Below, in pieces: positions 3,767 through 43,513 of a stretch of 51,766 nt of DNA; the first letter of the stretch is position 1, and each line of letters starts with the position of its first letter. Under the pieces are notes generated by a model. The model searched no databases, was not told where the DNA came from, and saw only the letters and a list, made by a program, of their open reading frames with translations. The stretch comes from Candidatus Aenigmatarchaeota archaeon (GTDB lineage Archaea > Aenigmatarchaeota > Aenigmatarchaeia > Aenigmatarchaeales > Aenigmatarchaeaceae). The translations under genes and the position numbers were made by a program. The stretch is from NCBI GenBank assembly GCA_046760145.1, contig JBHIDO010000003.1:1-51766 (forward strand), given 5' to 3'.

Positions 3767-3798
3767 TGAACCAGCAGAGGTATTTGAGAGGTCTAAAC
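3767..3798 (-). other. 3' strand of pre-23S processing stem (BHB)
   Basis: GUUUAGACCUC-UCAA-AUA-CCUCUGCUGGUUCA is complementary to 8698-8730, with a 4-bp UUGA/UCAA helix and two 3-nt bulges. Confidence 0.85.
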
Positions 3799-4007
3799 AA
3801 AAAGGCGTTGGGAACAGCGAGCTGAATATGTCGCCGAAGCTTCATACTTACACTCCTGTCCCATTAAACGGATCGTCTATCCGTGCCAGTTACCTATTTT
3901 TCCCGGCAGCTTCGAGCTTAGATGCCTTCAGCTCTTATCTGCTATGGCGTAGCTGCCCGGCAGTGCATTAACAACCGGTCAACCAGTGGCCACGAGTGGG
4001 CGTTCCT

Positions 4008-4228
4008 TTTACGTGCACCCACCACTTGAAAAATTTCATCTTATTTAAAGGGTTTATTTCCCTTAAAAATTTCTTAACATTTTTTTCTGTAAAAACAATT
4101 AGTACTATTCTTAATCTTAATTTTAAATCGTATACATGTCCATCTGCTAAAGCACCCTTTAAATAAGCTAAATCTCCTTCCATATTTCGATTATTGTTTT
4201 TGAAATTTAAATTTGTGATGAAGTGCAT
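4008..4228 (-). mobile_element. BHB intron (221 nt) in the sarcin-ricin loop, with LAGLIDADG remnant
   Basis: UACG-AA^A-UGCAC...GUGCA-CGUA-AA^A; ligation gives AGUACGAAAGGAAC; internal AYLKGALADGHV remnant. Confidence 0.9.
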
Positions 4229-4292
4229 TTCGTACTTGCCCATTCTTCGAGTCAGGTAACAACACCCTCAGAAGATATAAACCGTACTGTCT

Positions 4293-4447
4293 TTGTCGTC
4301 AAGAGTAAGAGGAATTAATGGCTCATTAGCTACCCATAATCTAATCATAGCCTGTATCGTATTTGGTAATCTATTTTCATAGCTAGCTAATGCTAATGCT
4401 CAATAGATCATCTTGAGATACGAAAAAGACCCCTCTTGCTACTTGAT
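4293..4447 (-). mobile_element. BHB intron (155 nt) in helix 93 loop, about E. coli 2597/2598
   Basis: GUCG-UG^A-UCAAG...CUUGA-CGAC-AA^A; ligation restores GUCGUGAGACAG. Confidence 0.9.
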
Positions 4448-4467
4448 CACGACGTACTGAACCCAGC

Positions 4468-4679
4468 TTCCGCAGGAGTCAATAAGATATCTAACTTTCT
4501 TTTCTTAGCAGGATGTGGAAGTTTATATCTTGAAAAAATTTCAATATTTGTTGATTATTATGGTATTTTCATTTTTTGAAAGATGCCCATCACTTCCAAT
4601 AATTCCTGCCAAAGTGGAAAGTTTCATAAGTAATAATATGTTCAATCCTACTTATTTATTAAATCTTACTGAACCCCTT
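4468..4679 (-). mobile_element. BHB intron (212 nt), about E. coli 2577/2578, with LAGLIDADG remnant
   Basis: Long terminal stem AGGGGUUCAGUAAGAU/AUCUUAUUGACUCCU with imperfect central helix; ligation gives GGACGUUAGCUGGG; internal MKLSTLAGIIGSDGHLS* remnant. Confidence 0.85.
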
Positions 4680-5315
4680 TAACGTCCCCCTTTAATCAGT
4701 GAACACCTGCACCCTTGGCCGCTACTGCACGGCCAGGAGGGGGGGAGCCGACAGCGGAGAAGCAACGCGCGGGGTCGATATGGGCTCTCGCCCGCCACGA
4801 CTCCATTATCCCCGGGGTAGCTTTTCTGAAGTCACAAAAATCCACCAAGGAAAGTTTGCGTTTCGCTAGCCCACGCTTTCGCGTCTGGATTTCTTGCATT
4901 GCAAAATCCAGTCAGGCTGACTTTTGCGCTTACACTCTAAGTCTGATTTCTGACCAGACAGAGTCAACCTTTGGGCACTCTTGATCTCCTGTCAAGAGTG
5001 TACCGCCCCAGCCGAGCTGCCTACCAATCGGTGTCCCTCTTTCGGGGTTAGTCATACAATCATAGAAAGTCAGTGTTACATTGGCGCTTATCTAACACCC
5101 GAAAGTGTTAGAATAACAGCTCCTGACTACGCTATGTAACTATAACCATACAACAGCGACAGGCTGCAGCAGAGCTCCACGGGGTCTTCTCTTCCCACTG
5201 AGGGTCTCTGGCCTATTCACCAGAAAAGCAGGTTCGCCAAGCTCCAGCTCGGGACAGCAGGAAAGTCGTTAAGCCATTCATGCGGGTCGTCAATTAAACG
5301 ACAAGGGATTACGCT

Positions 5316-6061
5316 CAATCTGTTACTTTTATGACCTTCTGTTTCTAGAAGGCGGGATTGCATTTCTACAAACCTCCTCATGTCTCCATGAGGTTCGGAC
5401 TATATCTTCATCACTTTTATGATGTCTGGCGTATAGTCTCTGAGGATCCCGCTTTCTTTATTTCATCTATTATTTGATTTAATTTGTATCGCCTTTGTTT
5501 CCCTTCAAGGTTCATCTTAAAGACCTTTTCAACCATATGCATGAATTTTCTTTTGTCTGAATGGTCCTTTCTTTCTAATGCATTAACTATTTCTTTAAAT
5601 ATTTCAAAGTCTTTTTGTTTTGCAATTAATTTGTATTTTTCAAAGAAGGGAATTATTTTTTCTTTTAGTTGTCTTCTGTTATCAACTATGAACAGAAGAA
5701 TATTTTTTTGTCCGGGTTTCTCAATTATTCTTCCGCAATGAAGTTCTTTTTTGAAAAGTTCAAGAACTTCTCGGCTGTTTTTATGTTGTGTTACTTGAAA
5801 TAATGGATCAAGCACCCAACCAAATCTAGTACCTTTTTGTTTTTTTGTGGAAATACTAAAACAACCTTCTGCATCTGAGAAACCTACCAGGTAATGGTTT
5901 AGGTATTGCTTCTTGCTCAGAAGCTTCTTATCCATCATATTTTATCACCTCTTGCGGTTTCCTGCTGGTTGTCCATATATCATCAAGATTTTTCCTTACT
6001 TAGGACTTGAAGCTTTAGGATATTCCAGCATACAGCCAGATTTTACTAAGGCAACATATTC
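5316..6061 (-). mobile_element. Group I intron (746 nt) after U1931 (E. coli numbering)
   Basis: Inserted in CUUAAGGU^AGCG; exon ends in U and intron ends in G; core elements AUGCUGGAA (P), AACCAGCAGG (Q), UCAGAGACUAUA (R), AAGAUAUAGUCC (S). Confidence 0.92.
5417..5938 (-). CDS. Single-motif LAGLIDADG homing endonuclease encoded by the group I intron
   Basis: YLVGFSDAEGCF motif, FQVTQH; GAGGTGA RBS; 3' end runs into the intron R element. Confidence 0.93.
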   Translation of the reverse strand: MMDKKLLSKKQYLNHYLVGFSDAEGCFSISTKKQKGTRFGWVLDPLFQVTQHKNSREVLELFKKELHCGRIIEKPGQKNILLFIVDNRRQLKEKIIPFFEKYKLIAKQKDFEIFKEIVNALERKDHSDKRKFMHMVEKVFKMNLEGKQRRYKLNQIIDEIKKAGSSETIRQTS

Positions 6062-6193
6062 ACCTTAAGACGGTCAGAGTTACCGCCGCCGTTTACGAGG
6101 GCTTGAGCCGGTTGAAACCAGCTTTCACACACTCGCACTGGGCAGGCCTCACCGAGTATACAAAGGATTTCTCCCTAGCACTCGGCTACGTTT

Positions 6194-6633
6194 TTTAACC
6201 AGAAAGAATTAAGCTCTATGATAAAATCTTTTTCCTTCTTCATCAAACATAAACATATAAGGAGTACCTGTTGGTGATTTTTCTCTAAATCTATCGAGAA
6301 GTTCTTTATGGTCCAGGGTTTCTATACTACCCTTATCAACAACATAATTTCCACTATTTGGATCTATCAATATAGTACAAGGAAATTCTTTAATTTCTGG
6401 TAATATCTTTTCAAGATGTCTTTTTGCTCTAGCTCCTTTTAATTCTGATGTCTCAAAATAATCGAAAGACATTTCTTCCAATCTGTATATTGAAGCTTCT
6501 GGGTTGATAGCTATTAATTCATTTATCTCTTCTGGATCACTTGTAATAGTGATAACTTCATCATCTTTAGCTAACATGTATTTTACCATAAACAGAATTC
6601 CTCATAAAACCTTAAATACTTAACTCCTTCTGT
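6194..6633 (-). mobile_element. BHB intron (440 nt), about E. coli 1784/1785, carrying an intact ORF
   Basis: UAAC-AA^A-CAGAAGGAGUUAA...UUAAUUCUUUCUG-GUUA-AA^A; ligation restores GACUGUUUAACAAAAAC. Confidence 0.9.
6209..6589 (-). CDS. Intron-encoded hypothetical protein (126 aa), no homing-endonuclease motif
   Basis: ORF fills the intron loop; C-half ILIDPNSGNYVV...REKSP...PYMF loosely recalls DUF5678-like domains. Confidence 0.7.
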   Translation of the reverse strand: MVKYMLAKDDEVITITSDPEEINELIAINPEASIYRLEEMSFDYFETSELKGARAKRHLEKILPEIKEFPCTILIDPNSGNYVVDKGSIETLDHKELLDRFREKSPTGTPYMFMFDEEGKRFYHRA

Positions 6634-6717
6634 TTGTTAAACAGTCGCCTTCCTCTTGTCACTGCGACCTATGTATCTCTACATAGGCAACCCTTCTACC
6701 AAAGGTACGGGTCTAAT

Positions 6718-6937
6718 TTCGACTGGACGGAGAAAGTTCAAATGTTTTTCAACAAAAATTTTTGCAAATCGCCTACAGAATCAAATTTATTTATCCAATT
6801 TGATTTAGAAGTAAGTTTGCCACAAAAAATAATAAGTTCTACAATGTCATTTTTTCTATAAAATCCTTGCTTCCTTTTCTTTGAACCACTCTTTAGGGGC
6901 TTGAATCGAGACTTACTAGACGAACTTCTACATCCAT
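6718..6937 (-). mobile_element. BHB intron (220 nt), about E. coli 1677/1678
   Basis: CGGC-AA^A-UGGAUG...CGUCCA-GUCG-AA^A; ligation restores UUCGGCAAAUUAG; loop holds AT-rich decayed coding-like sequence. Confidence 0.88.
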
Positions 6938-8697
6938 TTGCCGAATTCCCTAAGCTGGTATAACTTGACACACCATTGCCTTCTCAGCAAGGGGCACCTG
7001 TATCGGTTCTGGGTATGATCACAAACAATCCTTTCTGATTGCATTTTCATGGCCTCTGGGAATTTGCTGAACTCCCCTATACAGAGAAGCTATTCATACC
7101 TTTATCCGGTTCTCTCTTTGACAGAACTTCCCGGATTTAAGTATTTAACTTACGTCAGCATATCTCCAAAGGGTCTGCAATCAGACTTGCGTTGCCGCAC
7201 GTATGTTTGTGGTACAGGAATATTAACCTGTTTCCCTTTCCCCAGATTCAGTTAAGGTCTGGGTTAGGATCAACTAACTCCCGGTTGATAGACATTGCCG
7301 GGAAACCCTTGCCCTTTAGGCGGAGAGGATTCCAACCTCTCTTTGATGCTACTACTGGCAGGATTTTCAATTCTGCATGGTCCATGCTTGCTTACGCAGG
7401 CACTTCTACCCACACAGAACGCCTTCCTACGCTATATCTTTCGATATCTAAGGTATCGGTAACCAACTTACTCCCGTCCATCTTCAGCGCATCAGTCCTC
7501 GACAGGTCCGCTGTTACGCGTTGTTTAACGGATGGCTGCCTCTAAGCCAACCGCCCTGCTGTTTTAGGGCTGACACTACTTTTGTGACTTAGTTGGTATT
7601 TAGGGACCTTAACCTTAGGCTGGGTTGTTCCCCTTTCGGACACTAAGCTTACCCCAGTGCCCTCACTCCTACCTTCTAAGATACTGACAGATTATTAGTT
7701 TGACAAGAAAGCCGGGAATTTCTTCCCTTAACTTCCTAATCAGTGCTTTACCCCATCAGTTATCTCTGGTAAGGCTGTGCTAAGACACATTTCGGAAGGA
7801 ACCAGCTATCAGCGCTCTCGATTGGCTTTTCACCCCTAATCCCAAGTCACCCGAACGATTTGCAGCTCAGTATCGGTATCGGACCTCCACGCAGCTTTCG
7901 CTACGCTTCATCCTGCTAAGGATTAGATCGAGCGCTTTCTGGTCTTGTTCATGTGACTACTCCCTCTTTCAAAGGACGCCCCTCAAATTTGCGGGCTTGT
8001 CGCTTTCGCTACGGATTCGTTTTTAAAAACTTAACCTCGCCACAGAAACAAACTCCCTGCCCCGTGTTTCCAAACGGACTCCATAACCCTGTAAGCTCTC
8101 CCTAGTACACATCACTTGCGTGATTTTCCTTCAGGAAAGCACCTTTCAGGCCATGGATGACTATTACCATTTGGTTTCAGGATCTTTTCATCTTCTGTGA
8201 AGAATACTTTTCAGCTTTCTGTCACCATACTTCTTCACTATCGGACTTTTGAGATATTTAGGGTTACGAGTTGGTGCCTCGCATATTCCTGCTCCATATC
8301 CAAGGAACAGTAATCTTTTCCTGAAATCAACTTTCTGGTCTTCCTCTACTCGACTATCACGATCTATGGTGTATCTTTCCAGATAACTTCGAGTCAACCA
8401 GCGAAGTTGTGCTCAGGTTCCACATATTACTTGTATTTCTACAAGCATTCGGTTTGCCCTGTTCTGCTTTTAGTCGCCCTTATTCACAGAATCGCGTTTG
8501 CTTTCTTTTCCTCCGCTTACTAAGATGCTTCAATCCAGCGGGTTCCCTATCCTTTCGGATTGCTAGCCGAAGCTAGCACGAAGTCGCATTCAATGATCTT
8601 GGGTTCAAAGGCTACTTGTGCCTACCCCAAGCTTTTCCTAACTTGCTAGGATCTTCTTCGGTCTCAAAAGCCAAGCCATCCACCAAATGGTTTACCT

Positions 8698-8730
8698 GCT
8701 TAGACCTTTTCTCAACCTCTGCTGGTTTCA
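8698..8730 (-). other. 5' strand of pre-23S processing stem (BHB)
   Basis: UGAAACCAGCAGAGG-UUGA-GAA-AAGGUCUAAGC pairs with 3767-3798. Confidence 0.85.
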
Positions 8731-9028
8731 TAAACATGAAGTTCAATTGACCATCTTGTTATCATTTAATCAAAAGGTGTTCGGATTTCTCATTACTTCA
8801 TTTCAACCCTTCCACTACAATGTTAATTGTAATGTGCACGAATTTGCTGTCATAACTCAATTTGTTTTAATTCATCCAGCAATCATACTTGATAGTATGA
8901 TTTCAACGGTGAAAAAGAAAAAGCATCATCTAGTCGCCTATTCAGCAAGGTTCCAATGAAATTAAAAATCTGACATGTTCTCACCAAGTAAAAATTAATT
9001 GTTCTTCAAAACTATTTAAAGATTTCTA

Positions 9029-16300: not shown

Positions 16301-19300
16301 TGATACACAAGGAGCATGGAATGTATCTGACGTATGGAACTTTACTATTCAGAAAGGTAGTACTGAAACTTATCTTTATCTTAATGATTCTAGAGATAAC
16401 ATAACTGTAAATGAAACTGCAACAGTTAATTTCACGGTTTATACCAATGTTTCTGGAAGATCGGTTGAATTATGGACAAATTATTCTGATGGAAATTGGA
16501 AATTATGGGACTCTTCTAATGAACCATTAATGAATTATACTAAAATGAATGAAGTTGGTTTCTTCAAGTTTACAGGTAATTTTTCAGGTGATCAGAATTA
16601 TACAGGTTCAACCGAAACATTTTATGTGACTGTTCAAGAACTTTATTGTACTGGCTCTGATCCTTACGATGGATCAGATGATTGGACAATTACTGGTGAA
16701 ACTATTTGTGAAAATGAAGACTTTTCATTAAATGGTAATTTAACTGTCAATTCTGGAGGAACTTTAAGATTTATCAATACTACTTTACACGTTAACGGAT
16801 CTAGTGATGGAGAGTACAATATTTTTGTAGACGGTTCTATGTTTATTAACAAAAGCTCTAACATAACTAATGGTGATACAGCAACAGCAGAATTTAGATT
16901 TGAAATTAATTCTGGTGCAACTGCATTTCAGATGAATGATTCTTATTTAAGTGAAGCTGGGTGGCACGCTGATTATCCGGGTTTATCTGTAACAAATGTT
17001 AATGAAATTATCATTAAAAATAATACAATTAATAATGTATATTACGGCTTAAACATAACTTCTTCAAATAACATCGATATTTTGGATAATGATATTGATT
17101 CAGGTTGGACAGGAATATATGTTAATACAAATAATAGTAATATTTCAGGTAATGAAATTTTTAGTACAAATTATAGAGGAATTGATATGAGATCTTCAGA
17201 TAATAATACTGTCTCATATAATGATGTAGATGCTGGTAATGCCTACGGATTATATATGGGTGGTTCAGATAACAATACTTTTCTATACAATAATTTTACT
17301 AGCGATTCTACTGGATTTTACATGTATTCATCAGAAAATAATAATATATCAAATAACAACATAATTAATAACAATGTGAATGGTATTGGTTTTTATTTAG
17401 CAAATAATAACACTTTTTTAAACAATGAAATTACTGGAAATAATAAATATGGAGTTGCTATTGATTTTTGGAGTAGTAATAATACATTTAAAAATAATAC
17501 TATTGAAGGAAATTCTGAAGGAGTTTACATACTACAATATTCAAATAATTCTTTATTTATTAACAATACAATTAAAACAACCGGAAGTACCACATATGCT
17601 TTCTTTAGTGAAAATTCAACTGGTACAGAAGTCTATAATTCAACTCTTATAAGTGTTAATAATCTTAGGGACGTTAATTTGAGTGAAACTGGAAATTTGA
17701 CTTTTGTAAATGTTGATTTTAATAAAAGTGCAACAAATTTCGAACCAGGATCAACAGCTGAATTATTTGTGAAATGGTATGTCATAGCTAATGTTACTGA
17801 TACGTCCAACAATCCAATACAAGATGCAAATGTAACAGCTTATAATGTTTCTGATATAGATGTGTGGTGGAACTACACGAATGCAACTGGTTTCACAAAC
17901 TGGACAATTATTCAAGAATATTGGCAAAATGCAACTAATAAATATTTTCAAACAAATTATACCTTCAATGCTACGAAATCTGGTTATGTTGAAGGAAGTG
18001 AAGAAGTTAATGTAACTGAGAACGTACAAGTTAACATAACATTAAGTATAATTGGATGTGATCCTCCAGCATCTGGAAATTGGAATATAACAGAAGCTGA
18101 TAATATAGTATGTGAAGATAAAATAATATACCTCGATGGAAATTTGACTATTTATGGAAATTTGACTTTCTTAAAAAATGTAACATTAAAACTGAATTTA
18201 ACACATAATGGACATGAAAACATAACAGTTTTCAATAATGGTAATTTCACAATAAGAAGTCAATCTAACATAACAAGTAATGATACAAGTTATCGTTTCC
18301 CATTTATAGTTAAATCTGGATCTAAATTTGAAATGAAAGATTCTGAATTACATAAATGTGGTTTTAGCGATGCTAGCCCATATCTGAAAACTGGATTAGT
18401 AATTCGGACAAATAATACAGAGATTATAAATAATACATTTTCATTTAATTACTGGGCTATTCAATTGTCAGGTAGTACATGTTGTCACGAAATAGAAAAT
18501 AATACATTTTACAATAATACATACGCTGTAATTTTAATAAGTAGTTTTGGAATGAATAATTTTAGCATAGTTAATAATACAGTTTATAATCATACAAAAT
18601 ATGGTATTAGTATTTGGCAAACATATATGGCATCTCCAGAATATCCTATTAAATCATTTATAAACATTACTAACAATACTGTCTATTATACAGAAGGAAA
18701 TACAGGATATGGTATAAGTGTATGGGGATTGGCAAATAATTCTGTAAAATATAATAAAATATACAATAATACAGACGGCATTTATCTTTACATTGCTGAT
18801 AACAATACTGTATCTGACAATAATATATCACACTCAAGATATGGTATTCAATTACATTTTGCTGATTTTAACAACGTCAATAATAATACAGTATATAACC
18901 AAACTTATGGGATTTATCTCTATGTTACTAATAGTAATAACACGATTGAAGATAATGAAATATTTAATAACAAAGAAGGAATATACGGTTATGAATATGA
19001 AAATTATAATAATACTTTAAAAAATAATACAATTTATAATAATGATTATGGGATATATCTAAAAAAAGATAACGAGGGTAACATAATCGAAAAGAATGTA
19101 ATTTATAATAATGATGATGGTATAATATTTTATATCAATAGTAATAATACAATAACAGATGATAATAACATATCATTTAATTCCAGATATGGTGTAGTAA
19201 GCGTAGAGTCTTATTTAAAAATAAATGTAACTGAAGTGGAAAATAATACAAATGGTAAAGTTCTATTTGCTTGGTCAAGTCGTGTTCATGCAATAAATGC

Positions 19301-20363
19301 AACAGGTCATGATTTACAAGGTGCTTATGTTTATGTAAGAAATGTCTCGGGTATTGTTGCATCTTATAACTATTCCGAATATTATGATTTGATACCGTAT
19401 TTTATAACAGATGGTAGTGGTTGGACAAGTTATAAAAGATTCTTAGTATATCAAAATAGAACAAATAATGATTCTACAACAACAAACTTCAATGATCATA
19501 CTTTCTTTGCAAACAAAACAGGTGTAGGTAGTGGAAAGAATATAACAACAATGAACGAATCAAAAAATATTGTAATAAATGTAACTGAACATTTACCTTC
19601 TGTTAGTAATGTTTTTGTTGATGATGATGAATTACCACTTAATAACATAACTTTAATTGGAGGTTATCAAGAAGTTGTCACTTGTAACGGAACAGTTAAC
19701 GATGAAGAGGGTTATTGGGATATAGATCAAGCCTGGGCCCAGTTTTTTGATGACGATTATTCATGGGATGATTCTGATGATAATAACATGCATTATACAA
19801 ACAATAGTTGTGATTTATTTGAGGGAAGTGGGGAAAGTATCTATGCTGAATGTAAATTTTATGTGTGGTATAATGCTAATGTCTCAACAAGGTGGAATTG
19901 TAATTTAACAGTAAATGACTCCTTTAATGAAATAGGATGGTATAATGATACAAACCATATAGATGAATTGTTGGCAATAGCTGTAAATGAAACAACACAA
20001 TTTGGATCAATGAGTCCTGGTGAAACTAGTAGTGAAGATGTAAATAATACTGTTACAAATTATGGTAATATAAAAATAGATTTGAAATTAAACGGGTCTG
20101 ATATGATTTGTAGTGTAAGTGGACAAATTCAAACAGAAAAAGAACGTTATAACTGTACACATTACAATCAAAATTATAACAATATGGCAGAATTAACTGA
20201 AACTTCAACATCAGCTTATTGTACAGGATTTGATTTAAACAAAACCACAACACCAACTGGTACACCTGAAACATCAAATAAAAGTTTACCTTGGAAAATA
20301 CAAATTCCTAGCGTTAGTGGAGTTTGTAATGGAACTGTTTGGTATATTGCTATAGCTGGTTGA
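13380..20363 (+). CDS. Giant (2327 aa) surface glycoprotein/adhesin with parallel beta-helix (NosD/CASH-like) repeats
   Basis: NUMOD3-like basic N-tail, TM at about aa 98-120, two Asn-rich GIYL...NNTI..N.I repeat blocks, C-terminal domain shared with 10498-11538. Confidence 0.85.
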   Translation: MAFTKKQWEEWKRKNPEKWEERRRKLSESHKGKKLPKKHRKKISEKMKGKKKSEEHRKKISESVKKRIQEKKLKERKKIIKKPKIIHRKISFPGKLNYYFITIIIVIVLFSAIILSGTFYTALIVSEYAWAENWENKTEVIADKSMEKMTLHIIFDEYKPKDCKEGIYVTDGIQDIDFEIVNPVYVNNTCIETDIVFENLIYAPCPVCPPTTCGECIEYNLNNEKYWQQECTINYCDGTTDYECDSITSVQNCDPNITCKEYKVITNETTGIRWAECVDLILKNESQTNSSYENSTITGSAILKKKTTKTYYIYFGKKPKLEIKFDRDPQCHKCGKHKAPPLANVNMSISADFNGTLHSATFADYYHKDWIVMNANGGNIVPYNETYNKIEWYVGDIKNHVEKWYIIKSPRKETPQPPIKYYFRSDLNKMKSDWWLIIVADQFPENALDELYEPCQEFINPYCTPNNVTEGVTKNISFYWYTTGPDTWSFTFELQFNESADTEGSNEAGNSTSQAPDPIEYGANCNNGYYISVKDIYIVSCTGWNCDDNNDGTVSIYSVSEVSGTANITYEVEFCEDYARGKYFDFDQYVISAGGPWDGIPIPDSYVDQWGINIQLPPQWNNQGQSDDEINSGDVNYLWTNWTDSSDNLDWAWLSTNETTNWVNYTDITTKTYTITGSGEGNNYAYYNNSSVYSIPENSVGNEFDTNEYNNISIDDGEYANHTVQTGQYAFHHFNFSINESEETITELKILWNGISDTAEPSGKTTLWIWDGSSYGDPLASESSGPNEVSLMVTFDDAVNISNYVIDGRINIKIYSAAESGFIATDYIELNVSYGKDHTSPRVLRTYTEKLTNFTWNNTSISSGKICWKIYANDSTDPENVTNQMCFDVTVANTPPTWSNNQSYTPSTYDPNTLSEFNVTWQDSETDVDTVFIEGNWSTCQNNCTMDNLTYGGSIYNYSEVLPAGFYYWKSYANDTQGAWNVSDVWNFTIQKGSTETYLYLNDSRDNITVNETATVNFTVYTNVSGRSVELWTNYSDGNWKLWDSSNEPLMNYTKMNEVGFFKFTGNFSGDQNYTGSTETFYVTVQELYCTGSDPYDGSDDWTITGETICENEDFSLNGNLTVNSGGTLRFINTTLHVNGSSDGEYNIFVDGSMFINKSSNITNGDTATAEFRFEINSGATAFQMNDSYLSEAGWHADYPGLSVTNVNEIIIKNNTINNVYYGLNITSSNNIDILDNDIDSGWTGIYVNTNNSNISGNEIFSTNYRGIDMRSSDNNTVSYNDVDAGNAYGLYMGGSDNNTFLYNNFTSDSTGFYMYSSENNNISNNNIINNNVNGIGFYLANNNTFLNNEITGNNKYGVAIDFWSSNNTFKNNTIEGNSEGVYILQYSNNSLFINNTIKTTGSTTYAFFSENSTGTEVYNSTLISVNNLRDVNLSETGNLTFVNVDFNKSATNFEPGSTAELFVKWYVIANVTDTSNNPIQDANVTAYNVSDIDVWWNYTNATGFTNWTIIQEYWQNATNKYFQTNYTFNATKSGYVEGSEEVNVTENVQVNITLSIIGCDPPASGNWNITEADNIVCEDKIIYLDGNLTIYGNLTFLKNVTLKLNLTHNGHENITVFNNGNFTIRSQSNITSNDTSYRFPFIVKSGSKFEMKDSELHKCGFSDASPYLKTGLVIRTNNTEIINNTFSFNYWAIQLSGSTCCHEIENNTFYNNTYAVILISSFGMNNFSIVNNTVYNHTKYGISIWQTYMASPEYPIKSFINITNNTVYYTEGNTGYGISVWGLANNSVKYNKIYNNTDGIYLYIADNNTVSDNNISHSRYGIQLHFADFNNVNNNTVYNQTYGIYLYVTNSNNTIEDNEIFNNKEGIYGYEYENYNNTLKNNTIYNNDYGIYLKKDNEGNIIEKNVIYNNDDGIIFYINSNNTITDDNNISFNSRYGVVSVESYLKINVTEVENNTNGKVLFAWSSRVHAINATGHDLQGAYVYVRNVSGIVASYNYSEYYDLIPYFITDGSGWTSYKRFLVYQNRTNNDSTTTNFNDHTFFANKTGVGSGKNITTMNESKNIVINVTEHLPSVSNVFVDDDELPLNNITLIGGYQEVVTCNGTVNDEEGYWDIDQAWAQFFDDDYSWDDSDDNNMHYTNNSCDLFEGSGESIYAECKFYVWYNANVSTRWNCNLTVNDSFNEIGWYNDTNHIDELLAIAVNETTQFGSMSPGETSSEDVNNTVTNYGNIKIDLKLNGSDMICSVSGQIQTEKERYNCTHYNQNYNNMAELTETSTSAYCTGFDLNKTTTPTGTPETSNKSLPWKIQIPSVSGVCNGTVWYIAIAG

Positions 20364-20364: not shown

Positions 20365-21630
20365 ATGAAAAAAATAATATTTCCGTTTGTTTTATTTATT
20401 TTATTCTTCATCGTGATTGTTTATGCACAAGAAACAGTAATTTCAAGGGTTACTATAGAATGTTATAATACGAGTTTGTTATTAACAACTAACAAAAATA
20501 CTTATACACCACCAGAAACAGCAAATATGACAGTTTATATTCATCATAATAGTAGTTTTCCTTTAAATGCAACTTTAATAATAGATTTGGTGGATTCTAT
20601 AGGCAATACAGTTAAAACGATGGTAAATGATGATATTTACACAGCAGCTTATAGTTGGTATAATTATTCTTATTATAATGACTTCGAGGGTGTTTTACCA
20701 GGAGATTATATAATGCGATCAAGACTTTTTTATTTTCAAGAAGAAGATAATCAAATAATAGATTGTTCAGGTAATAAAATTGAATATAATAAATCAATAA
20801 CCATAATATCAATACCACCTGGCGTAGTTGTACCTGGTTTTCCTCCACTAGAAATAGAAAATGTAACACCTAGTTTAGATGTGAGTTGTCCACCAAGAGT
20901 AGAACTAGAGGAGCCTATGGGCGTTAACTATAATATAAACAACCCAACAGAGAAAATACAACAAACCGTATTATACACAATTCTATCAAAAGAGAATATA
21001 GCTTATAAATCTGTTAAAAAAATTGTTACATTAAACCCTAAATCTTCTTATTCATGGACCGAAAATATGGGACTTGCAACATGTAGTTTGCCACAAGGAT
21101 TATACAATGTTATAGTTGTTTGGAAAAAGATTGATGGTAGACAAATAAAAGTTGAAAGTTTATTATGTTTTGAAATTCCAGAATGTAAAAAAGTAAAAAT
21201 AATAAATGTAACTCATCAATATTTTTATATAAATGAAACTGTTATTTTAGGTGTAAGGGTTAAAAACTTAGGAAATGTCAATGTATCTAATTTGTTATTA
21301 GATATTTCTATTGAGAGTTTTCTGGCAAAGGTTCATCAGGAAAAGTTTCTAATTAATTTTTTGTTACCTGACCAAACTTATACAGTTTACTTATTTAAGG
21401 AATTAAAACCTGGACCATACGTTGTAAATGTGGGATTAATTGAAAAGTCTGAGATAATAGATTCTAAAAAAGTTTCATTTATAATACCACCAAGAATAGA
21501 AATAATTGATTTAATCTTAATTATTATTATATTATTACTTGTAGCTTATGTAATAAGAAGATACATAAAAAGGTATTTGATGGAAAGGAGAAGAAAAAGA
21601 GTAATAAAATTAATAAAAAGAAGAAAATAA
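20365..21630 (+). CDS. Signal peptide + Ig/CARDB-like domains + C-terminal TM anchor
   Basis: TNKNTYTP, VKNLGNV motifs; C-terminal TM and basic tail. Confidence 0.65.
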   Translation: MKKIIFPFVLFILFFIVIVYAQETVISRVTIECYNTSLLLTTNKNTYTPPETANMTVYIHHNSSFPLNATLIIDLVDSIGNTVKTMVNDDIYTAAYSWYNYSYYNDFEGVLPGDYIMRSRLFYFQEEDNQIIDCSGNKIEYNKSITIISIPPGVVVPGFPPLEIENVTPSLDVSCPPRVELEEPMGVNYNINNPTEKIQQTVLYTILSKENIAYKSVKKIVTLNPKSSYSWTENMGLATCSLPQGLYNVIVVWKKIDGRQIKVESLLCFEIPECKKVKIINVTHQYFYINETVILGVRVKNLGNVNVSNLLLDISIESFLAKVHQEKFLINFLLPDQTYTVYLFKELKPGPYVVNVGLIEKSEIIDSKKVSFIIPPRIEIIDLILIIIILLLVAYVIRRYIKRYLMERRRKRVIKLIKRRK

Positions 21631-24242: not shown

Positions 24243-25772
24243 TTAATTTGAAGTACTAATATAAAAATCATCTTTTAATTTTCTTCCTGTTTTATTTTCC
24301 CACTCTTTAATTGGTAAAGAAAATTTTTCTTGAATATTATCTCTATACCATTGTGGAATCACATTAAATGCGCAAAATGGAACAATTGTCCCATCTGGCT
24401 GGGCATAATGTATACAACATCTCTTTACTCTTTCGATATCATAATTATATAGGTCCATAAAGTGCATCATTCCAATGAATAAACTTTTACGATGCAATTT
24501 TCCTAATGCATTATAATTTCTTTTTCTGAAAATATTAGTTAATAAGTTTGTTAAGTTTAATCCATTTGGTTGTTTTTCCTTATCAATAAAACTTCCAATT
24601 TTTGACAAAATTTTTAGAGAAGTCAAAACCTTAGATTTTCCAGATTTAATTTCTTCTGTTTTTTCTTTTAAATATTCTAACAATCCTTCTATATCAAAAA
24701 ATCTAGGTAATGGGATAATTTTACCATTATCAAAAAAAATGTAAGTTGCCATCCCACATGCAAAATGAGTAGACAAAGCGTATTCTGGTTTTCCAGAAAG
24801 AGTTTCAATAAATTTAGTTAATGGCATAACAGTTGGAACAGGATAAAAATCTTCTTTTCTAATTTCACCATTTGTTTGTTCTTCTATTTTTTTAATTACA
24901 TCTGGAATTGTTATCCTATATTTTTTCAGATCTGCTTTTGTAATTCTTCCCACCAAAGAAACTGGTTGATAATTAACACTTCTCACGATATCAATATTTT
25001 CTATTCCAAATTTTAATATGTCTCCAACTTCATGGTCATTAACATTATTAATAATAGTAGGAACTAAAACAATACCTAATCCAGCTTTTCTACAATTTTC
25101 TAATGCTTTGGGCATCTCCCAGTGATTTTTTGGATTAGTTCTTTCTGTTACACCGTCAAAACTCATGTAAACTGTATTAGAACCAGCTTCTCTAACTTGT
25201 CTTGCAAATTCAGGATCATTAGCCAATCTTATTCCATTGGTATTTAATTGAACGTGATCATAACCTTCTTCTCTTGCAATTTTTATAATTTCAATTATAT
25301 CGCTTCTAATTGCAGGTTCACCTCCGGTTAACTGAACCGCGTTACAAGGAACTGGTTTTTCTTGTCTCATCTTTCTTAGCATCATTCTAATTTGTTCTAA
25401 AGAAGGTTCGTAAACATAACCCATTTTCTTTGCATAAAAGAAACAATACCAACATTGTAAATCACAACGATTTGTCACGACAATATTTCCCAAAGCAGTA
25501 TGAGACTTATGGACATTACATAATCCACAATTTTTTGGACATTCTTTAAATTGGGTGTTTGGATTAGAAACTCCTTTTCCATCATAAGCAAATTTTTCAG
25601 CCTTTTTATACATCTCATAATCTCCCCAATATAAATCTATAATTTCATCATGTTCTTTACATTCTTTTTTAATCCAAACTTTATTATCTTCTTCAAAAAT
25701 GATAGCCTTTAGAAATTCTAAACATTCGGGACATAATGAAAGAGTTTCTTTTAAAACGTTCATATTAATCAT
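24243..25772 (-). CDS. tes: Radical SAM tetraether lipid synthase (Tes/MJ0619 family)
   Basis: SLCPEC...KECKEH N-domain, CPKNCGLC..H, TNRCDLQCWYCF, RCCIHY...IVPFCAFN. Confidence 0.85.
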   Translation of the reverse strand: MINMNVLKETLSLCPECLEFLKAIIFEEDNKVWIKKECKEHDEIIDLYWGDYEMYKKAEKFAYDGKGVSNPNTQFKECPKNCGLCNVHKSHTALGNIVVTNRCDLQCWYCFFYAKKMGYVYEPSLEQIRMMLRKMRQEKPVPCNAVQLTGGEPAIRSDIIEIIKIAREEGYDHVQLNTNGIRLANDPEFARQVREAGSNTVYMSFDGVTERTNPKNHWEMPKALENCRKAGLGIVLVPTIINNVNDHEVGDILKFGIENIDIVRSVNYQPVSLVGRITKADLKKYRITIPDVIKKIEEQTNGEIRKEDFYPVPTVMPLTKFIETLSGKPEYALSTHFACGMATYIFFDNGKIIPLPRFFDIEGLLEYLKEKTEEIKSGKSKVLTSLKILSKIGSFIDKEKQPNGLNLTNLLTNIFRKRNYNALGKLHRKSLFIGMMHFMDLYNYDIERVKRCCIHYAQPDGTIVPFCAFNVIPQWYRDNIQEKFSLPIKEWENKTGRKLKDDFYISTSN

Positions 25773-32809: not shown

Positions 32810-33973
32810 ATGATTAAGAGATTATCAATCTTAGGATCAACTGGTTCAGTGGGTGATCAAGTTTTAGAAGTAATTGATCAAAATCCAGATAAATATAAAA
32901 TTGATGTTTTATCTTGTTATGGACGTAATCTAGAAAAATTCAAAGAACAAATAGAAAAATACGAACCAGAAATGGTTCATGTTTATAATGAAGGTGCTTC
33001 TAAAGAATTAAAAACAATGTTAAGAAAGAATCATATTGGAATAGAAGTTCTTTCTGGAGAAGAAGGACTAATAGAAGCTGCTATTTATCCTAGCGCTGAT
33101 GGTGTTATTACAAGTTTAACTGGATCAATAGGAATAAAACCTACTTATGAAGCAATTAAAAATAATAAAACAATTTATCTTGCAAATAAAGAAAGTCTAG
33201 TTGTTGCTGGAGAAATTATAACAAAAGAATCTGATAAAAGAGGTGTAGATATTATTCCTTTAGATGATGAACCAGCTGGAATTTATCAAATATTAGGCGG
33301 AAGAAGTAAAGAATATACAAGTAATGTGGAAAAAATTTTATTGAGTTGCTCTGGTGGACCATTTAGAGGAAAAACAAAAAAAGAATTAAAAGATGTTACA
33401 GTTGAAGAAGCTCTTAATCATCCAAAGTTTAGAATGGGTCCTAAAATATCCATGGAATCAGCTTTATTATTAAACAAAGCACATGAAGTGATTTCAATAT
33501 ATTATTTATTTGAATTAGATAGTCCGGAAAAAATTGAAACATTTGTACATCCAGAAGCAATAATCCATGCAGGTGTACGATACATAGATGGAACTGAACA
33601 ATATAGTGCTTGGTTACCATCAACAAAATATGCAATAGCATGGGCATTAAGTCCTGAAAGATTTGAAAATGATTTTGAAAGAGTAGATTTATTTAAAGAA
33701 AAAAAATTAACATTTGAAAAACCAGATTTAGAAATCTTCCCTTGCTTACAATATGGTTATGAATCATTAAAAATTGGAGGAAGCATGCCTGCAGCATTTT
33801 ACTATGCAGGTGATATTGCAACTGATTTATTTTTGGATGGGAAAGTAAAATTCCTAGGTATACCAAAAATAATTAAGAAAATACTTGATAATTATAAACC
33901 AATTGAAAAACCTACTTTAGATTATTTGTTAAATCTTGAAAATAAAATCAAAGATATTTATAAGAAGCTATAA
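32810..33973 (+). CDS. dxr: DXP reductoisomerase homolog with divergent active site
   Basis: ILGSTGSVG, LANKESLV, SGGPFR, HPxxxMGPKIS, FPCL motifs. Confidence 0.8.
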   Translation: MIKRLSILGSTGSVGDQVLEVIDQNPDKYKIDVLSCYGRNLEKFKEQIEKYEPEMVHVYNEGASKELKTMLRKNHIGIEVLSGEEGLIEAAIYPSADGVITSLTGSIGIKPTYEAIKNNKTIYLANKESLVVAGEIITKESDKRGVDIIPLDDEPAGIYQILGGRSKEYTSNVEKILLSCSGGPFRGKTKKELKDVTVEEALNHPKFRMGPKISMESALLLNKAHEVISIYYLFELDSPEKIETFVHPEAIIHAGVRYIDGTEQYSAWLPSTKYAIAWALSPERFENDFERVDLFKEKKLTFEKPDLEIFPCLQYGYESLKIGGSMPAAFYYAGDIATDLFLDGKVKFLGIPKIIKKILDNYKPIEKPTLDYLLNLENKIKDIYKKL

Positions 33974-40899: not shown

Positions 40900-41927
40900 T
40901 TAGGTTTTAACTATCCATTCTTTACCAAATATAGGAATTTCTTTTCCACACTTTTCACATTTTAATGATAATTTTGAAACACTTATTCCAAATCTTTCAA
41001 TAACCCTTGTATTACATTCAGGGCAATAAGTATTTTCATATTTATGACCAGGGACATTTCCTAAGTAAACATAATTCATTCCATTTTCTTTAGCTATTTT
41101 AACTGCTTGCTCTAAAGTTTGAACAGGAGTTGGTTTTACATTTAGTAATTTATAATGAGGATAAAATCTTGAGAAATGTAATGGAGTATCTGGACCTAAA
41201 TTGTTTTTTATCCATTCTACCAGATTTTTAATTTGTTCTTTCTTATCATTATATCCAGGTATTATCAAATTTGTAATTTCTATCCATACCTTTTGTTTCT
41301 TATATTCTTTTAATGCTTGTTTTATTGGGTCTTCATTAGGAATCGAACATAATTTTTGATAAAATTTAATATCACCTTTCATATCAACATTTATTGCATC
41401 CAAATATTTTGCAATTTTTCTAATTGGTTCAATATTTGTGAAACCATTAGAAACCCAAACATTATACAATCCTTGCTTTTTTGCTAATTTCATTATATCA
41501 TAAGCATATTCATAAAAAATTGTTGGTTCAGTATATGTATAAGCAATCCCAGGAGAATTATGCTTATTATTAAATTCTATAATTTCTTTTGGAGACATTT
41601 TTTCACCGAAAATTTCTTTTGGATGAGAAATTTCCCAATTCTGACAAAAAATACATTTTAAATTACAACCAACTGTACATATTGACAAACAATTTGTTCT
41701 TGGTGCAAAATGAAATAATGGTTTTTTCGAGCTTCTATAGCTTATTGCTATAAAAGTTTCTCAATAGGATCTACTGCCATAGATGCGATTTTCCCATAAA
41801 CTAACGAATACAATTTTCCATTTCTGTTTTCCCTTACTCCGCATACCCCTCTATTATCTGAAGCAATTTTACAATTCCTAGGACATAAATTGCACTCAAT
41901 ACCTCCATTCAATTTCTTAAAAAACAT
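40900..41927 (-). CDS. amrS: AmmeMemoRadiSam system radical SAM enzyme (PflA-like), two exons: 41927-41758 and 41725-40900 (331 aa spliced)
   Basis: Exon 1 CNLCPRNC...GVCGVR...YGK...VDPIE; exon 2 KPLFHF...GCNLKCIFCQN, AYTYTEP, PLHFSRFYP, TYCPEC. Confidence 0.9.
41726..41757 (-). other. 32-nt BHB intron in mRNA
   Basis: UGAG-AA^A-CUUUUAUAGC-AAUAA-GCUAUAGAAG-CUCG-AA^A; contains an in-frame TAG; excision restores frame and DPIEKKP. Confidence 0.88.
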
Positions 41928-41941: not shown

Positions 41942-43513
41942 TTAAACACCTCCTTTTTTTCTATATCTTACCAATATGTTATTCAAAAGGAAAAATCCTG
42001 TTGTTATTGGAAAAATAAAACTATTATTAATTCTTATTTCTTTTTTATAAATAATCTTACACCAATTAAGTTTAATCTTTAATAATTTATCTATTTTGTT
42101 ATCTTTAAGAACAGTGTTAAGTTTAATTAAAGTTTCGTAAGAAAAGTTTCCACTCTTCTCCATTGAATATATATTACTTAAACCAGTATCAGAAGCAAGT
42201 TGTTTAGCAGGAATATTCAATTTTTTTCTTAAATTTCGCAAATAACTTCCTACATTTGGAATTATTCTTCTTTCTGTAAAATTCATTTTTTTCAACTTTA
42301 ACATCTCTTCATTTTTCTTACGATGTTTCAAACATTTTATATTTTTAATTAACCTACCAATGTTACCTCTAGATACAGATAAAATCCATGTGTTATCTTT
42401 TTTAGATTTTCTAATTGATGAAGATACACCTATTCTTAGTAAAGCTGATGAAAGACCTAAAATAAACTTGAAACTGTTTGATGTAATAGTTATACTATAA
42501 TTTGTAGCACTTACATTACCTTCACCGTCAATTACACCTCGTAGTGCATTTAACATTATCTTATTTTTACTTAACAAAGCTAATTGTGGAAATTCAACAA
42601 TTTTTGATTTGTTTCCTTTAGGTACACCCAAAAATCTATGATAAAAATATGCTAAGAAACCAGGTAAATTTATTCTTGTTCCATTTTGTTGATATCCATG
42701 AACATTGAAGTACATATCCTTTAATACATTAGTATAATTTTTGTCTGAAAATTCAAGTATAGCTTGCTTTTCATTTTTTACTATGTGCCCCTCTGCGACC
42801 ATAACAGCATTAAGATAAGCTAAATCATCATTATATTCAAAGGGAATTTTCGCAAATTTTTTAGCGCTTTTTTCATTTTTCAATCCTTTAGAATAATTAA
42901 ATATTTTATAGATTTTATTTTCGTCAAGATATTTCTTTATAAATTTTTTGAGATAACCATAGCTTATACTATCTTTAGAAGAAGGATTTCTTCTGACCAA
43001 CCAATATTCAACTTCTAGCTCTTTTGCAATATCTTTTAACAAAATATCTCTTTTTTTAAGTATTTTATTTAATTCTCTCAAATACCATTTTTTAACACCA
43101 ACGACGTATAAAAAGTCATCAAAATACCACGGATCAAATGTTATATTCTTTGAGGTGGTTTTGAATATCCTGGGTGTGGCTACAAAATCATTAACTTCCA
43201 AATCACTTACTTTTTTACATAATATGTCTGCATTTATTGTTGTTACAAGCTCAAAATTTTCCGGGACAATTATAAAGAAACCATTCTTTAATTTCAAAAA
43301 TACAAATTTTTTACACTTTTTATTTTTTATAGAAGAAACCGTAGTGCAATTAATTTTATTAGTAAAAGATATTAATTTATCACCTTTCTTTAATTCAAGT
43401 ATATCTTTTAAATAACCATTTGATAGTTGAACTAATTGAATACTATCACTTATTCTTTTTATATTCTCAATATCAATTAACCGACCATTTTTATTTTGTA
43501 TTATAGACCCCAT
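41942..43513 (-). CDS. Free-standing intein-derived protein: degenerate Hint + double LAGLIDADG + HTH
   Basis: LAYLNAVMVAEG and LRGVIDGEG motifs; Hint-like ends (LKKGD; LEVNDFVATPR; FLLNNILV) lacking Cys1, TxxH and terminal HN; no exteins. Confidence 0.8.
   Translation of the reverse strand: MGSIIQNKNGRLIDIENIKRISDSIQLVQLSNGYLKDILELKKGDKLISFTNKINCTTVSSIKNKKCKKFVFLKLKNGFFIIVPENFELVTTINADILCKKVSDLEVNDFVATPRIFKTTSKNITFDPWYFDDFLYVVGVKKWYLRELNKILKKRDILLKDIAKELEVEYWLVRRNPSSKDSISYGYLKKFIKKYLDENKIYKIFNYSKGLKNEKSAKKFAKIPFEYNDDLAYLNAVMVAEGHIVKNEKQAILEFSDKNYTNVLKDMYFNVHGYQQNGTRINLPGFLAYFYHRFLGVPKGNKSKIVEFPQLALLSKNKIMLNALRGVIDGEGNVSATNYSITITSNSFKFILGLSSALLRIGVSSSIRKSKKDNTWILSVSRGNIGRLIKNIKCLKHRKKNEEMLKLKKMNFTERRIIPNVGSYLRNLRKKLNIPAKQLASDTGLSNIYSMEKSGNFSYETLIKLNTVLKDNKIDKLLKIKLNWCKIIYKKEIRINNSFIFPITTGFFLLNNILVRYRKKGGV

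Follow-up and report, generated by a model that had tools for sequence, protein, structure and literature searches.

A probable BHB intron in the pre-mRNA of an archaeal AmmeMemoRadiSam-system radical SAM enzyme

Can a gene that is interrupted by a stop codon within its first sixty codons still provide a complete enzyme? The question is raised by a radical SAM gene of the AmmeMemoRadiSam system, which lies on the minus strand of the window, i.e., the whole analysed stretch of 51,766 nucleotides. The window belongs to a metagenome assembly of 30 contigs that is 65% complete, and the host lineage, by best match only (68% to an Aenigmatarchaeota MAG), is probably DPANN. The open reading frames of the gene are listed as 59 aa (41927..41748) and 262 aa (41688..40900). 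The reading ...GAT CCT ATT GAG AAA CTT TTA TAG... carries the frame of exon 1 to a stop at 41750-41748, which agrees with the earlier description of the gene as broken by a 32-nt insert with an in-frame stop. An unspliced message would terminate after 59 codons. The answer proposed here, with a probability of roughly 0.85 as judged from the nucleotide sequence, is that 41757..41726 (minus strand) constitutes a bulge-helix-bulge (BHB) intron of the radical SAM pre-mRNA. This was also the central claim of the earlier note, and it is upheld by a family profile that is colinear across the junction, by 23S rRNA introns of the same layout, by the presence of an EndA gene, by intact exons, and by inserts in relatives.

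The predicted mini-intron (41726..41757, 32 nt) comprises the third base of the 5' bulge, the hairpin, one helix strand, and bases 1 and 2 of the 3' bulge. Exon 1 (41758..41927) starts with ATG at 41927-41925 and ends with bases 1 and 2 of a split Lys codon; exon 2 (40900..41725) begins with the third base of that codon and closes with a stop at 40902-40900. The 5' strand of the central helix, UGAG (41760..41763, within exon 1), pairs with CUCG (41728..41731, within the intron) through U-G, G-C, A-U, and G-C, giving the 4 bp that a BHB requires. The 5' bulge AAA (41757..41759) is unpaired in the minimum-energy fold, and the 3' bulge AAA (41725..41727) is followed by an A-run and an outer helix of 1 bp. 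The inner helix h' (41732..41756) is a 10-bp hairpin with one U-G pair, whose arms (41756-41747 and 41741-41732) enclose a 5-nt loop read from the sequence as AAUAA (41746-41742). Under the rule taken from passages of PMC2738675, by which cleavage falls between residues two and three of the bulge, the predicted cuts lie between 41758 and 41757 and between 41726 and 41725.

The unconstrained fold of the region consists of a 5-bp helix UUGAG/CUCGA, an AAA bulge, and the 10-bp hairpin (z = -2.76; 3 of 200 shuffles were equally good). The minimum-energy fold thus favours a 5-bp helix, which displaces the 3' bulge by one base. The 5' AAA is closed by the central helix and the 10-bp h', and the 3' AAA has just a 1-bp outer helix. 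Because the latter lacks a closing outer helix, the motif is a relaxed HBh' and not a full hBHBh'; the relaxed form matches the description given in passages of PMC5829648. The fold claimed earlier stands in its UGAG/CUCG helix of 4 bp, its AAA bulges, and its 10-bp hairpin, and has to be qualified at the 3' bulge. The chance expectation was taken from 400,000 random windows of 24-38 nt from the source genome. A 4-bp helix at the places defined by the cuts occurred in 2.5% of them, the same helix plus an inner or outer helix of at least 3 bp in 0.30%, and the helix plus either 7 bp or more of inner helix or 4 bp or more of outer helix in 0.064%; the A-run permits four equivalent cut pairs, so these percentages rise at most fourfold.

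Excision of 41757..41726, with the second A of each AAA as the cut point, yields a frame of 331 aa with a single terminal stop. The product spliced in silico contains ...VDPIEKKPLFHFAP... with the family motif DPIEKKPLFHF. The assertion that the endonuclease rule restores both frame and motif is therefore borne out, and the family profile runs colinearly through the junction. Positions 9-58 of TIGR04337 fall on exon 1 (E 9.8e-13, 47.7 bits) and positions 60-330 on exon 2, which alone exceeds the curated cut-off (268.4 against 220 bits); the split codon supplies position 59, and positions 58, 59, and 60 are contiguous after splicing. Exon 2 also matches Pfam Radical_SAM (77.8 bits) and carries the radical SAM cluster motif CxxxCxxC as CNLKCIFC. 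No gap arises when the spliced frame is aligned to the full-length orthologs of relatives (24 of 24); KKP stands at the junction in every one of them, and DPIEKKP is found in 19. Columns conserved in at least 90% of 96 orthologs (n = 73) are retained in 71 cases, including 14 of 14 in exon 1; fewer are retained by 40 of the 96 orthologs themselves. Relaxed selection on exon 2, a sign named in the earlier note, was looked for, and no decay was seen, 56 of its 58 conserved columns being kept. The partner B of the system (Memo-like, AmmeMemoSam_B) is intact on contig C4 (277 bits).

Introns of the same layout are found in the rRNA of this genome. The 23S gene on the contig contains at least six inserts, and four of them, all on the minus strand, were fitted to a strict BHB. 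Intron A (220 nt, 6718..6937), recognized as an insert against the 23S of relatives, has a 4-bp helix with AAA/AAA bulges. Intron B (440 nt, 6194..6633) combines a 4-bp helix and AAA/AAA bulges with an inner helix of at least 12 bp and an outer one of 4 bp, and intron E (221 nt, 4008..4228) shows a 4-bp helix, AAA/AAA bulges, and an inner helix of 7 bp. Intron D2 (155 nt, 4293..4447) has the 4-bp helix GUCG/CGAC and the bulges UGA/AAA. Its junction is not given by relative L033, because L033 also has an insert there; the predicted junction would reproduce a conserved 23S stretch. All four strict introns thus share a 4-bp helix and the 3' bulge AAA, and three of the four also the 5' bulge AAA. 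For inserts C (about 6061..5316) and D1 (about 4672..4470), no strict BHB reproducing the junctions of relatives was found. A LAGLIDADG-like remnant is carried by insert D1. Five rRNA BHB introns of matching geometry had been counted previously; the shared layout holds, and the count becomes four strict BHB introns among at least six inserts. In tRNA genes, ARAGORN predicted introns in 17 of 35, and the six tRNA introns whose outer helix reaches at least 5 bp have 3' bulges AUA (three), AAA (two), and AAG (one).

A candidate enzyme for cutting such a motif is encoded in the genome. Both PF01974 (93.8 bits) and PF02778 (58.9 bits) match a single 172-aa ORF on contig C6 (14536-15054, minus strand), the only EndA unit found in the 65%-complete assembly. 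Its closest solved structures are 1a79 and 3iey. Compared with 1a79 of M. jannaschii, the protein has a Lys-rich insert of seven residues, a DPANN-type loop, which aligns to the loop of chain 3iey_A (presumably N. equitans EndA) with a gap of one residue and to ARMAN-2 4fz2 with a gap of two. In passages of PMC5829648, 'L3' loops of DPANN alpha4-type enzymes are linked to more disrupted tRNA genes. RtcB (PF01139) had no match in the 65%-complete assembly. Among relatives, 35 of 40 carry it, and so do 15 of 15 high-quality genomes. Of the machinery named earlier, EndA and RtcB, the first gene is therefore present, and the second was not found in the incomplete assembly.

From these elements, and by analogy with archaeal BHB splicing, a pathway can be proposed. 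In the transcript, UGAG of the exon would pair with CUCG of the insert, leaving AAA after each strand, and the 10-bp hairpin would stack on the helix. EndA, as a single unit of 172 aa, would cut between bases two and three of each bulge, and its Lys-rich loop would be of the kind typically found in DPANN enzymes with a tolerance for relaxed motifs. The exons may then be joined, and the 32-nt intron circularised, by an RtcB-type ligase, and the joined message would encode the complete enzyme of 331 aa.

The insert is present in four DNA runs and absent from all other orthologs examined. In each of four DNA runs, one contig covers the gene, insert included, with 0 differences; these contigs (6.4-8.4 kb, word depth 8.8-34) were separately assembled, and since the runs belong to one study, possibly the source of the assembly, their support is not fully independent. 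The insert as a feature of the DNA, questioned at the outset, is thus carried unchanged in four runs. Contigs of the runs that bridge the conserved anchors with 32 fewer letters match over just 20-28 nt per side and are read as intron-less homologs of other organisms. Within the genome, the insert is single-copy, the next-best blastn-short match being 12 nt. None of the 183 orthologs examined contains it: the counts are 0 of 24 for relatives, 0 of 79 for metagenome loci, with 1 more that is truncated, and 0 of 80 for genome loci. The nearest ortholog is only 68% identical. A family-level TIGR04337 search returned the same 21 genomes and no further case. Stops within the matches of L176 and L202 were checked and are terminal stops read through by the match; those within the matches of G024, G005, and G021 were taken as such, and this reading was based on stop-free alignments for L002, L003, and L022. 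The comparison of orthologs suggested earlier therefore gave no homologous intron among the 183, and compensatory changes were seen only among the analogous inserts of relatives. The intron appears to be a recent, lineage-specific gain. As to the possible coupling of the enzyme's expression to splicing capacity raised in the earlier note, a conserved role in regulation is not suggested by an intron that all 183 other orthologs examined lack; it is probably tolerated and not regulatory.

Comparable inserts in relatives were surveyed in five families (the radical SAM gene, RtcB, FEN-1, cbf5, and RadA) and identified by homology alone, not by structure. In G006, the CxxxCxxC motif of the radical SAM gene is interrupted by a 24-nt insert that contains TAA. 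RtcB inserts measure 30 nt in G011, 32 nt in G040, and 31 nt in both G001 and G039, and cbf5 inserts at the catalytic Asp codon measure 38 nt in G040 and 30 nt in G037. The RtcB inserts of G029 and G034 (33 nt) gave no strict BHB at cuts yielding HWG[FY]GFPIGG, and RtcB of G017, an ambiguous case, is left out of the tally. Eight of the ten inserts defined by homology, the 32-nt one of the radical SAM gene included, fit the cut rule and restore conserved peptides. Pairs of inserts at the same site show double compensatory changes, in two inner-helix pairs at RtcB site 1, in two central-helix pairs at RtcB site 2, and in two central-helix pairs in cbf5. FEN-1 was interrupted in 0 of 41 genomes and RadA had 0 small inserts among the 39 genomes with a match, so the mini-introns are sporadic and not general. 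The predicted sites lie in DPIEKKP and CxxxCxxC of the radical SAM gene, in two motifs from the catalytic core of RtcB, and at the codon for the catalytic Asp of cbf5, and this placement in the most conserved active-site motifs resembles that of inteins. It is tentatively suggested, at slightly less than even odds, that BHB mini-introns of 24-38 nt are scattered, and possibly mobile, among active-site motifs of protein genes in this probably Aenigmatarchaeota-like DPANN order and are routinely spliced. The intron of the radical SAM gene would be one member of this scattered population.

The source genome was also scanned for further split genes with the same motif, as had been proposed. A compact scan for hairpins of 4 bp or more with loops of 3-12, which misses imperfect hairpins and longer bodies, returned 7,746 sites, of which 62 fuse reading frames under the correct cut rule, versus 65-87 under eight wrong rules; the idea of other such genes thus found no backing, there being no genome-wide enrichment. 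The radical SAM insert is the sole frame-fusing match with a 10-bp hairpin. Hairpins of at least 10 bp occur in 49 of the 7,746 BHB-like sites, so that the shape alone is not rare in a genome of 29% GC. Ten other frame-fusing matches have hairpins of at least 6 bp, and at least four of them look, by their peptide ends, like neighbouring genes, presumably RpoH/RpoB, S19e/PDCD5-like, PheS/PheT, and an unknown gene with MetRS. Two other scans were discarded. A loose one (inner helix of at least 3 bp, intron of 12-150 nt) was too permissive, with 222,712 sites and 7,326 frame fusions, and a long-range search for helix-AAA...helix-AAA did not discriminate, with 1,171 matches versus 1,027 for TTT/TTT.

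The abundance of BHB-like shapes in this AT-rich genome, with 7,746 compact ones, bears on the possibility that the gene is a pseudogene, disabled by a recent hairpin-forming insertion of 32 nt whose BHB-like shape would be coincidental or irrelevant. A recent disabling insertion would look identical in the DNA, only the source genome carries the insert among the orthologs examined, the flanking 4-nt direct repeat GAAA can be read as a target duplication, and partner A of the system (AMMECR1, AmmeMemoSam_A) was not found in the incomplete assembly. However, only 0.06-0.3% of windows are expected to show this geometry precisely where the cuts fall, and the exons remain open over 331 codons despite frequent stops in the genome, with 71 of 73 conserved columns kept. 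The insert has no second copy in the genome and hence does not represent a mobile repeat. Of ten comparable inserts, eight obey the same rule, with compensatory changes, and a transcript of such shape would be a substrate of EndA regardless. A disabled gene is therefore considered improbable.

The same protein would result if the ribosome left the message at the AAA codon (Lys) that precedes the hairpin and landed on the AAA after CUCG. Translational bypass is known from phage T4 gene 60, which likewise has a hairpin-forming coding gap between identical codons. Here, too, matched AAA codons flank a stable hairpin, the stop lies three codons past the take-off site, and the product would be identical to the spliced protein. 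Bypass acts at the ribosome and not on the RNA, and it leaves the inserts of relatives and the rRNA introns unexplained. The insert of G006 lacks a matching pair of codons for take-off and landing (TTT before, GAA last, TGC after), yet it fits a BHB, and rRNA introns, in which translation is not involved, show this shape too. To our knowledge, there is no archaeal precedent, and bypass is regarded as very unlikely. Equally little credit can be given to separate synthesis of polypeptides of 59 aa and about 262 aa that then assemble. Split genes occur in Nanoarchaeum, and two ORFs are called here, but the second begins at TTG, 12 codons past the start of exon 2, and these first 12 codons (KPLFHFAPRTNC) are conserved, in frame, and come before any start codon; moreover, the break falls inside the most conserved motif, and the first ORF closes with two non-family residues (LL) before its stop. 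A programmed -1 frameshift or read-through, adding 11 residues, is extremely improbable: the exon-2 frame is open back to 41760, but no slippery heptamer is present at GAG AAA C, and the addition would fall in the DPIEKKP motif, which is gap-free in 24 of 24 orthologs. An assembly artefact, conceivable in a metagenome assembly of 30 contigs, is given a negligible chance in view of the agreement of the four separately assembled runs across the gene, albeit from one study that is possibly the source. A BHB intron in the pre-mRNA thus remains the favoured explanation.

Several known systems can be compared with this intron. A crenarchaeal cbf5 pre-mRNA intron was reportedly described by Watanabe in 2002. 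Passages of Yokobori 2009 (PMC2738675) describe such an intron as cut by EndA between the second and third bulge residue, and its motif as often relaxed and in need of an enzyme of broad specificity; in these passages, cbf5 agrees with its earlier citation as the archaeal mRNA precedent. Like the intron proposed here, the crenarchaeal one is short, BHB-like, and located within the coding sequence, in a catalytic motif. It differs in gene and lineage and is common to whole orders, whereas the radical SAM intron is confined to one genome and known here from sequence alone. The cbf5 inserts of relatives occupy the same codon position as the crenarchaeal intron. The BHB introns of archaeal rRNA and tRNA share the 4-bp helix and the 3-nt bulges, as in the four 23S introns, and presumably the same enzymes; unlike them, the radical SAM intron has a minimal hairpin body, no ORF, and no outer helix. 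As its host RNA is a message, the reading frame depends on the length of 32 nt (2 mod 3) and on exactly where the cuts fall. In eukaryotes, IRE1 and RtcB splice the XBP1/HAC1 mRNA, the XBP1 intron being 26 nt. These introns are likewise small, frame-changing, and defined by structure, and they are removed by a protein endonuclease together with an RtcB-type ligase and need no spliceosome, but the endonuclease is IRE1, twin stem-loops are recognized, and splicing is regulated by stress. The role of RtcB is named in PMC8718801. For Haloferax volcanii HVO_1309, a BHB intron located in the 5' UTR was reported (Schwarz 2020, PMC7714728). There, the mRNA is likewise a substrate of the splicing endonuclease, but the leader intron leaves the frame uninterrupted.

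Beside HVO_1309, crenarchaeal cbf5 was the only other archaeal mRNA case of a BHB reported as of 2020, according to passages of PMC7714728, and a literature search found no later report of a BHB intron in an archaeal coding sequence. The radical SAM intron very probably adds a second gene family, in a distant lineage, to a known kind of mRNA intron, and the RtcB and cbf5 inserts of relatives would be its companions. If this is true, the policing of reading frames is a more general capacity of the tRNA-splicing machinery, and an explanation would be at hand for a class of DPANN gene calls that appear 'truncated' or 'frameshifted' and deflate completeness and metabolic reconstructions. The introns would also offer a tractable system for understanding how protein-dependent introns enter coding genes, the substrates being hairpins of 24-38 nt and the endonuclease a single protein of 172 aa. 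Should the wider suggestion about mini-introns hold, mRNA splicing by the tRNA machinery would be routine in this archaeal order, and the RtcB ligase would have to splice its own message.

The gene for the AmmeMemoRadiSam radical SAM enzyme is interrupted by a 32-nt insert at 41757..41726 (-), as the earlier note had described. A minus-strand ORF from 41927 (MFFKK...AVDPIEKLL) runs into a TAG stop at 41750-41748, and a second minus-strand frame is open from 41760 and ends at 40900. In a profile search, positions 9-58 of TIGR04337, the model of this enzyme, correspond to exon 1 (41927..41760) and positions 60-330 to the frame from 41724 (268.4 bits, cut-off 220 bits), which also matches Radical_SAM of Pfam. 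The insert interrupts a Lys codon, and this codon accounts for the sole model position missed. Removal of the 32 nt in silico restores, as claimed, a single frame of 331 aa with one terminal stop (...VDPIEKKPLFHFAP...). This product is ungapped across the junction against all 24 full-length orthologs from 40 related genomes, where the junction reads KKP in 24/24 and DPIEKKP in 19/24. Of the partners in the AmmeMemoRadiSam system, B is encoded intact at another place in the genome, and a search for A in the 65%-complete assembly found none.

This archaeal assembly comprises 552 kb in 30 contigs at about 29% GC, and the contig with the insert (C3), which the window covers entirely, encodes RNase P RNA as well as archaeal 23S rRNA. 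The insert is supported at the DNA level by a 6.4-8.4-kb contig identical across the gene in each of four runs, all from one hydrothermal vent metagenome study and possibly the source of the assembly itself. No second copy of the 32 nt occurs in the genome. The contig also holds ORFs for Dxr (1-deoxy-D-xylulose-5-phosphate reductoisomerase; 352 bits, above the cut-off) and the tetraether lipid synthase Tes (758 bits, in a DPANN-sized genome), listed in this order with the pair 32810-33973 (+) and 24243-25772 (-). Dxr is an enzyme of the MEP pathway and unusual for an archaeon. An ORF of 2,327 aa lies at 13380-20363 (+), and its neighbours (10498-11538, 11603-12823, and 20365-21630) gave no NCBIfam matches. 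A free-standing 523-aa ORF, 41942-43513 (-), ends 15 nt upstream of the start codon of the interrupted gene. Its domains are LAGLIDADG_3, WhiA-type LAGLIDADG, and, with a score under the Pfam cut-off, intein splicing (Hint); it is similar to the intein portions of RpoA'', IF-2, and VatA, but no host protein surrounds it.

At the RNA level, the insert region reads UGAG, AAA, a 10-bp hairpin with a 5-nt loop, CUCG, and AAA, where the UGAG/CUCG pairing includes one U-G. This is the layout of the archaeal bulge-helix-bulge (BHB) motif in tRNA orientation, with the first helix strand in the 5' exon and its partner at the end of the intron. A cut between the second and third bulge residue, the rule stated for cbf5 introns in the accessible text of PMC2738675, takes out exactly 32 nt; the product is the same for every symmetric cut within the bulges, both of which are AAA. 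A weakness lies at the 3' side, where the AAA continues as an A-tract and only 1 bp of outer helix forms; this corresponds to the relaxed HBh' form described in the available part of PMC5829648. Folded without constraints, the region again forms the helix and the hairpin, with AAA bulged out on the 5' side (z = -2.76; 3 of 200 shuffles fold equally well). BHB-like shapes abound in the AT-rich genome: 7,746 compact ones occur, 49 of them with a hairpin of at least 10 bp. When 400,000 random windows of 24-38 nt were required to show the geometry at fixed cut places, 2.5% had the 4-bp helix, 0.30% this helix plus an inner or outer helix of at least 3 bp, and 0.064% either 7 bp or more of inner helix or 4 bp or more of outer helix. 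Coincidental geometry is unlikely, with the four equivalent cut pairs of the A-run allowed for. In a genome-wide frame-fusion scan, the correct cut rule showed no enrichment over wrong cut rules.

The insert shares its layout, a 4-bp helix with 3-nt bulges, with introns in the 23S rRNA gene of the same genome. Comparison with the 23S of relatives extends this gene to about 8731..3787 (-), which adds some 800 nt to the Rfam hit (4591-8708), and reveals at least six inserts. Five rRNA BHB introns had been proposed; four fit strictly (4-bp helix, 3-nt bulges), namely A (6937..6718, 220 nt), B (6633..6194, 440 nt), D2 (4447..4293, 155 nt), and E (4228..4008, 221 nt), all (-), but C (~6061-5316) and D1 (~4672-4470), the latter encoding a LAGLIDADG-like remnant, gave no strict fit. 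The predicted boundaries of A, B, and E lie within 1-2 nt of the ends of the blocks aligned with the 23S of relatives. The D2 junction rests on a presumed 23S consensus, because one relative (locus L033) also carries an insert at this site. The 3' bulge is AAA in all four strict introns and the 5' bulge in three. ARAGORN predicted introns in 17 of 35 tRNA genes; the six with a well-formed outer helix have AUA, AAA, or AAG as 3' bulge.

The tRNA-splicing endonuclease EndA is encoded by a 172-aa ORF with both EndA domains (G000:C6:14536-15054 (-), equal to L001:1474-1992; G000 is the present genome). Its best solved relative is 1a79, a subunit of the M. jannaschii homotetramer, and no second subunit was found in the 65%-complete assembly. 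Relative to 1a79 it has a 7-residue Lys-rich insert, which aligns with a 1-residue gap to chain 3iey_A, presumably the N. equitans EndA, and with a 2-residue gap to ARMAN-2 4fz2. The accessible part of PMC5829648 names the loop of Nanoarchaea and ARMAN-2 'L3' and reports alpha4-type enzymes with L3 in several DPANN lineages, alongside more disrupted tRNA genes. This incomplete assembly gave no match for the ligase RtcB, a gene that 35 of 40 relatives and all 15 high-quality genomes possess.

Small inserts of the same kind were found in relatives by homology, not by structure. In another genus (G006), the same gene contains 24 extra nt, inserted in frame (L010:1436-1459 (-)), which bring a TAA into the CxxxCxxC iron-sulfur motif; the insert follows the BHB rule (helix CGCU/GGUG, bulges UUU/AAU), and its minimum-energy fold favours an alternative with an 8-bp hairpin. 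Among the 35 relatives having RtcB, six carry inserts of 30-33 nt in it, with stops or frameshifts; these fall at two conserved motifs of the core, and a doubtful seventh case (G017) is kept out of the count. Strict fits were obtained for L217:727-756 (G011), L220:647-678 (G040), L222 623-653 on the reverse strand (G001), and L223:669-699 (G039), and none for L218 ~650-685 (G029) and L221 ~678-713 (G034). In cbf5, inserts of 38 nt (L224:586-623, G040) and 30 nt (L225:480-509, G037) fit the motif, with a 4-bp outer helix and bulges AGA/AAA. They lie at GGTLD|P, and the predicted cut separates the first letter of the catalytic Asp codon from the second, exactly where the accessible text of PMC2738675 places the crenarchaeal cbf5 intron. 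Counting the present insert, 8 of 10 have the 4-bp helix and 3-nt bulges exactly at the cuts restoring the conserved peptide. The 3' bulge is AAA or AAU in seven of the eight, and the eighth, not listed under those triplets, is no exception in kind. Same-site pairs show double compensatory changes: in two inner-helix pairs at RtcB site 1; in two central-helix pairs at site 2, where the intron strand tracks exon codon differences; and in two central-helix pairs in cbf5, tracking synonymous Thr-Leu codon differences. The phenomenon appears sporadic, since FEN-1 (41 genomes) and RadA (39 genomes with a match) have no small inserts. Like inteins and homing introns, the mini-introns seen all occupy those motifs of the host protein that are best conserved and important for catalysis; they may have been gained site-specifically, or may have persisted only in places where an imprecise loss would kill. 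Putative inteins are suggested by open frames around RtcB in G031:C25 (977 aa) and G038:C5 (1010 aa) and around RadA in G025:C12 (814 aa).

The homology-defined junction, the geometry, the 23S introns, and the inserts of relatives together support the proposal that the 32 nt are a putative BHB intron of a protein-coding mRNA, with a probability of about 0.85. Against this count the relaxed 3' site, the unassembled RtcB, the scan without enrichment, and the restriction of the insert to this genome. Orthologs had been proposed as a check on presence and on compensatory stem changes; the insert occurs at this site in none of the relatives' orthologs (0/24), metagenome loci (0/79, plus one locus ending short), or genome loci (0/80), and compensatory changes were seen only at other sites, in relatives. 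The nearest ortholog, from an Aenigmatarchaeota MAG, is 68% identical, and the probable lineage is read from this hit. The intron would be a young gain, because no other ortholog has an insert there. The same uniqueness would suit a recent dead insertion, which is nevertheless improbable: among 73 columns at least 90% conserved in 96 orthologs, the spliced protein keeps 71 (14/14 in exon 1 and 56/58 in exon 2, where relaxed selection had been the concern), an ordinary value below which 40 of the 96 orthologs score. Translational bypass between two AAA codons would yield the identical protein, but leaves the G006 insert and the rRNA introns unexplained and deserves very little credence. A split gene is just as hard to credit, since exon 2 opens with 12 codons for residues conserved in the family, and no start codon precedes them.

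The novelty lies in the host gene and the lineage, the mechanism of BHB introns being known already. The accessible part of PMC7714728 (2020) gives cbf5 as the only mRNA BHB intron reported besides its own 5'-UTR case, and searches of the openly accessible literature, among it a circRNA paper of 2025 and a review of 2026, turned up none for DPANN or for any other coding gene. The wider pattern is possibly new as well, above all RtcB with introns that its own product must ligate, so that the enzyme would be required for the splicing of its own mRNA.
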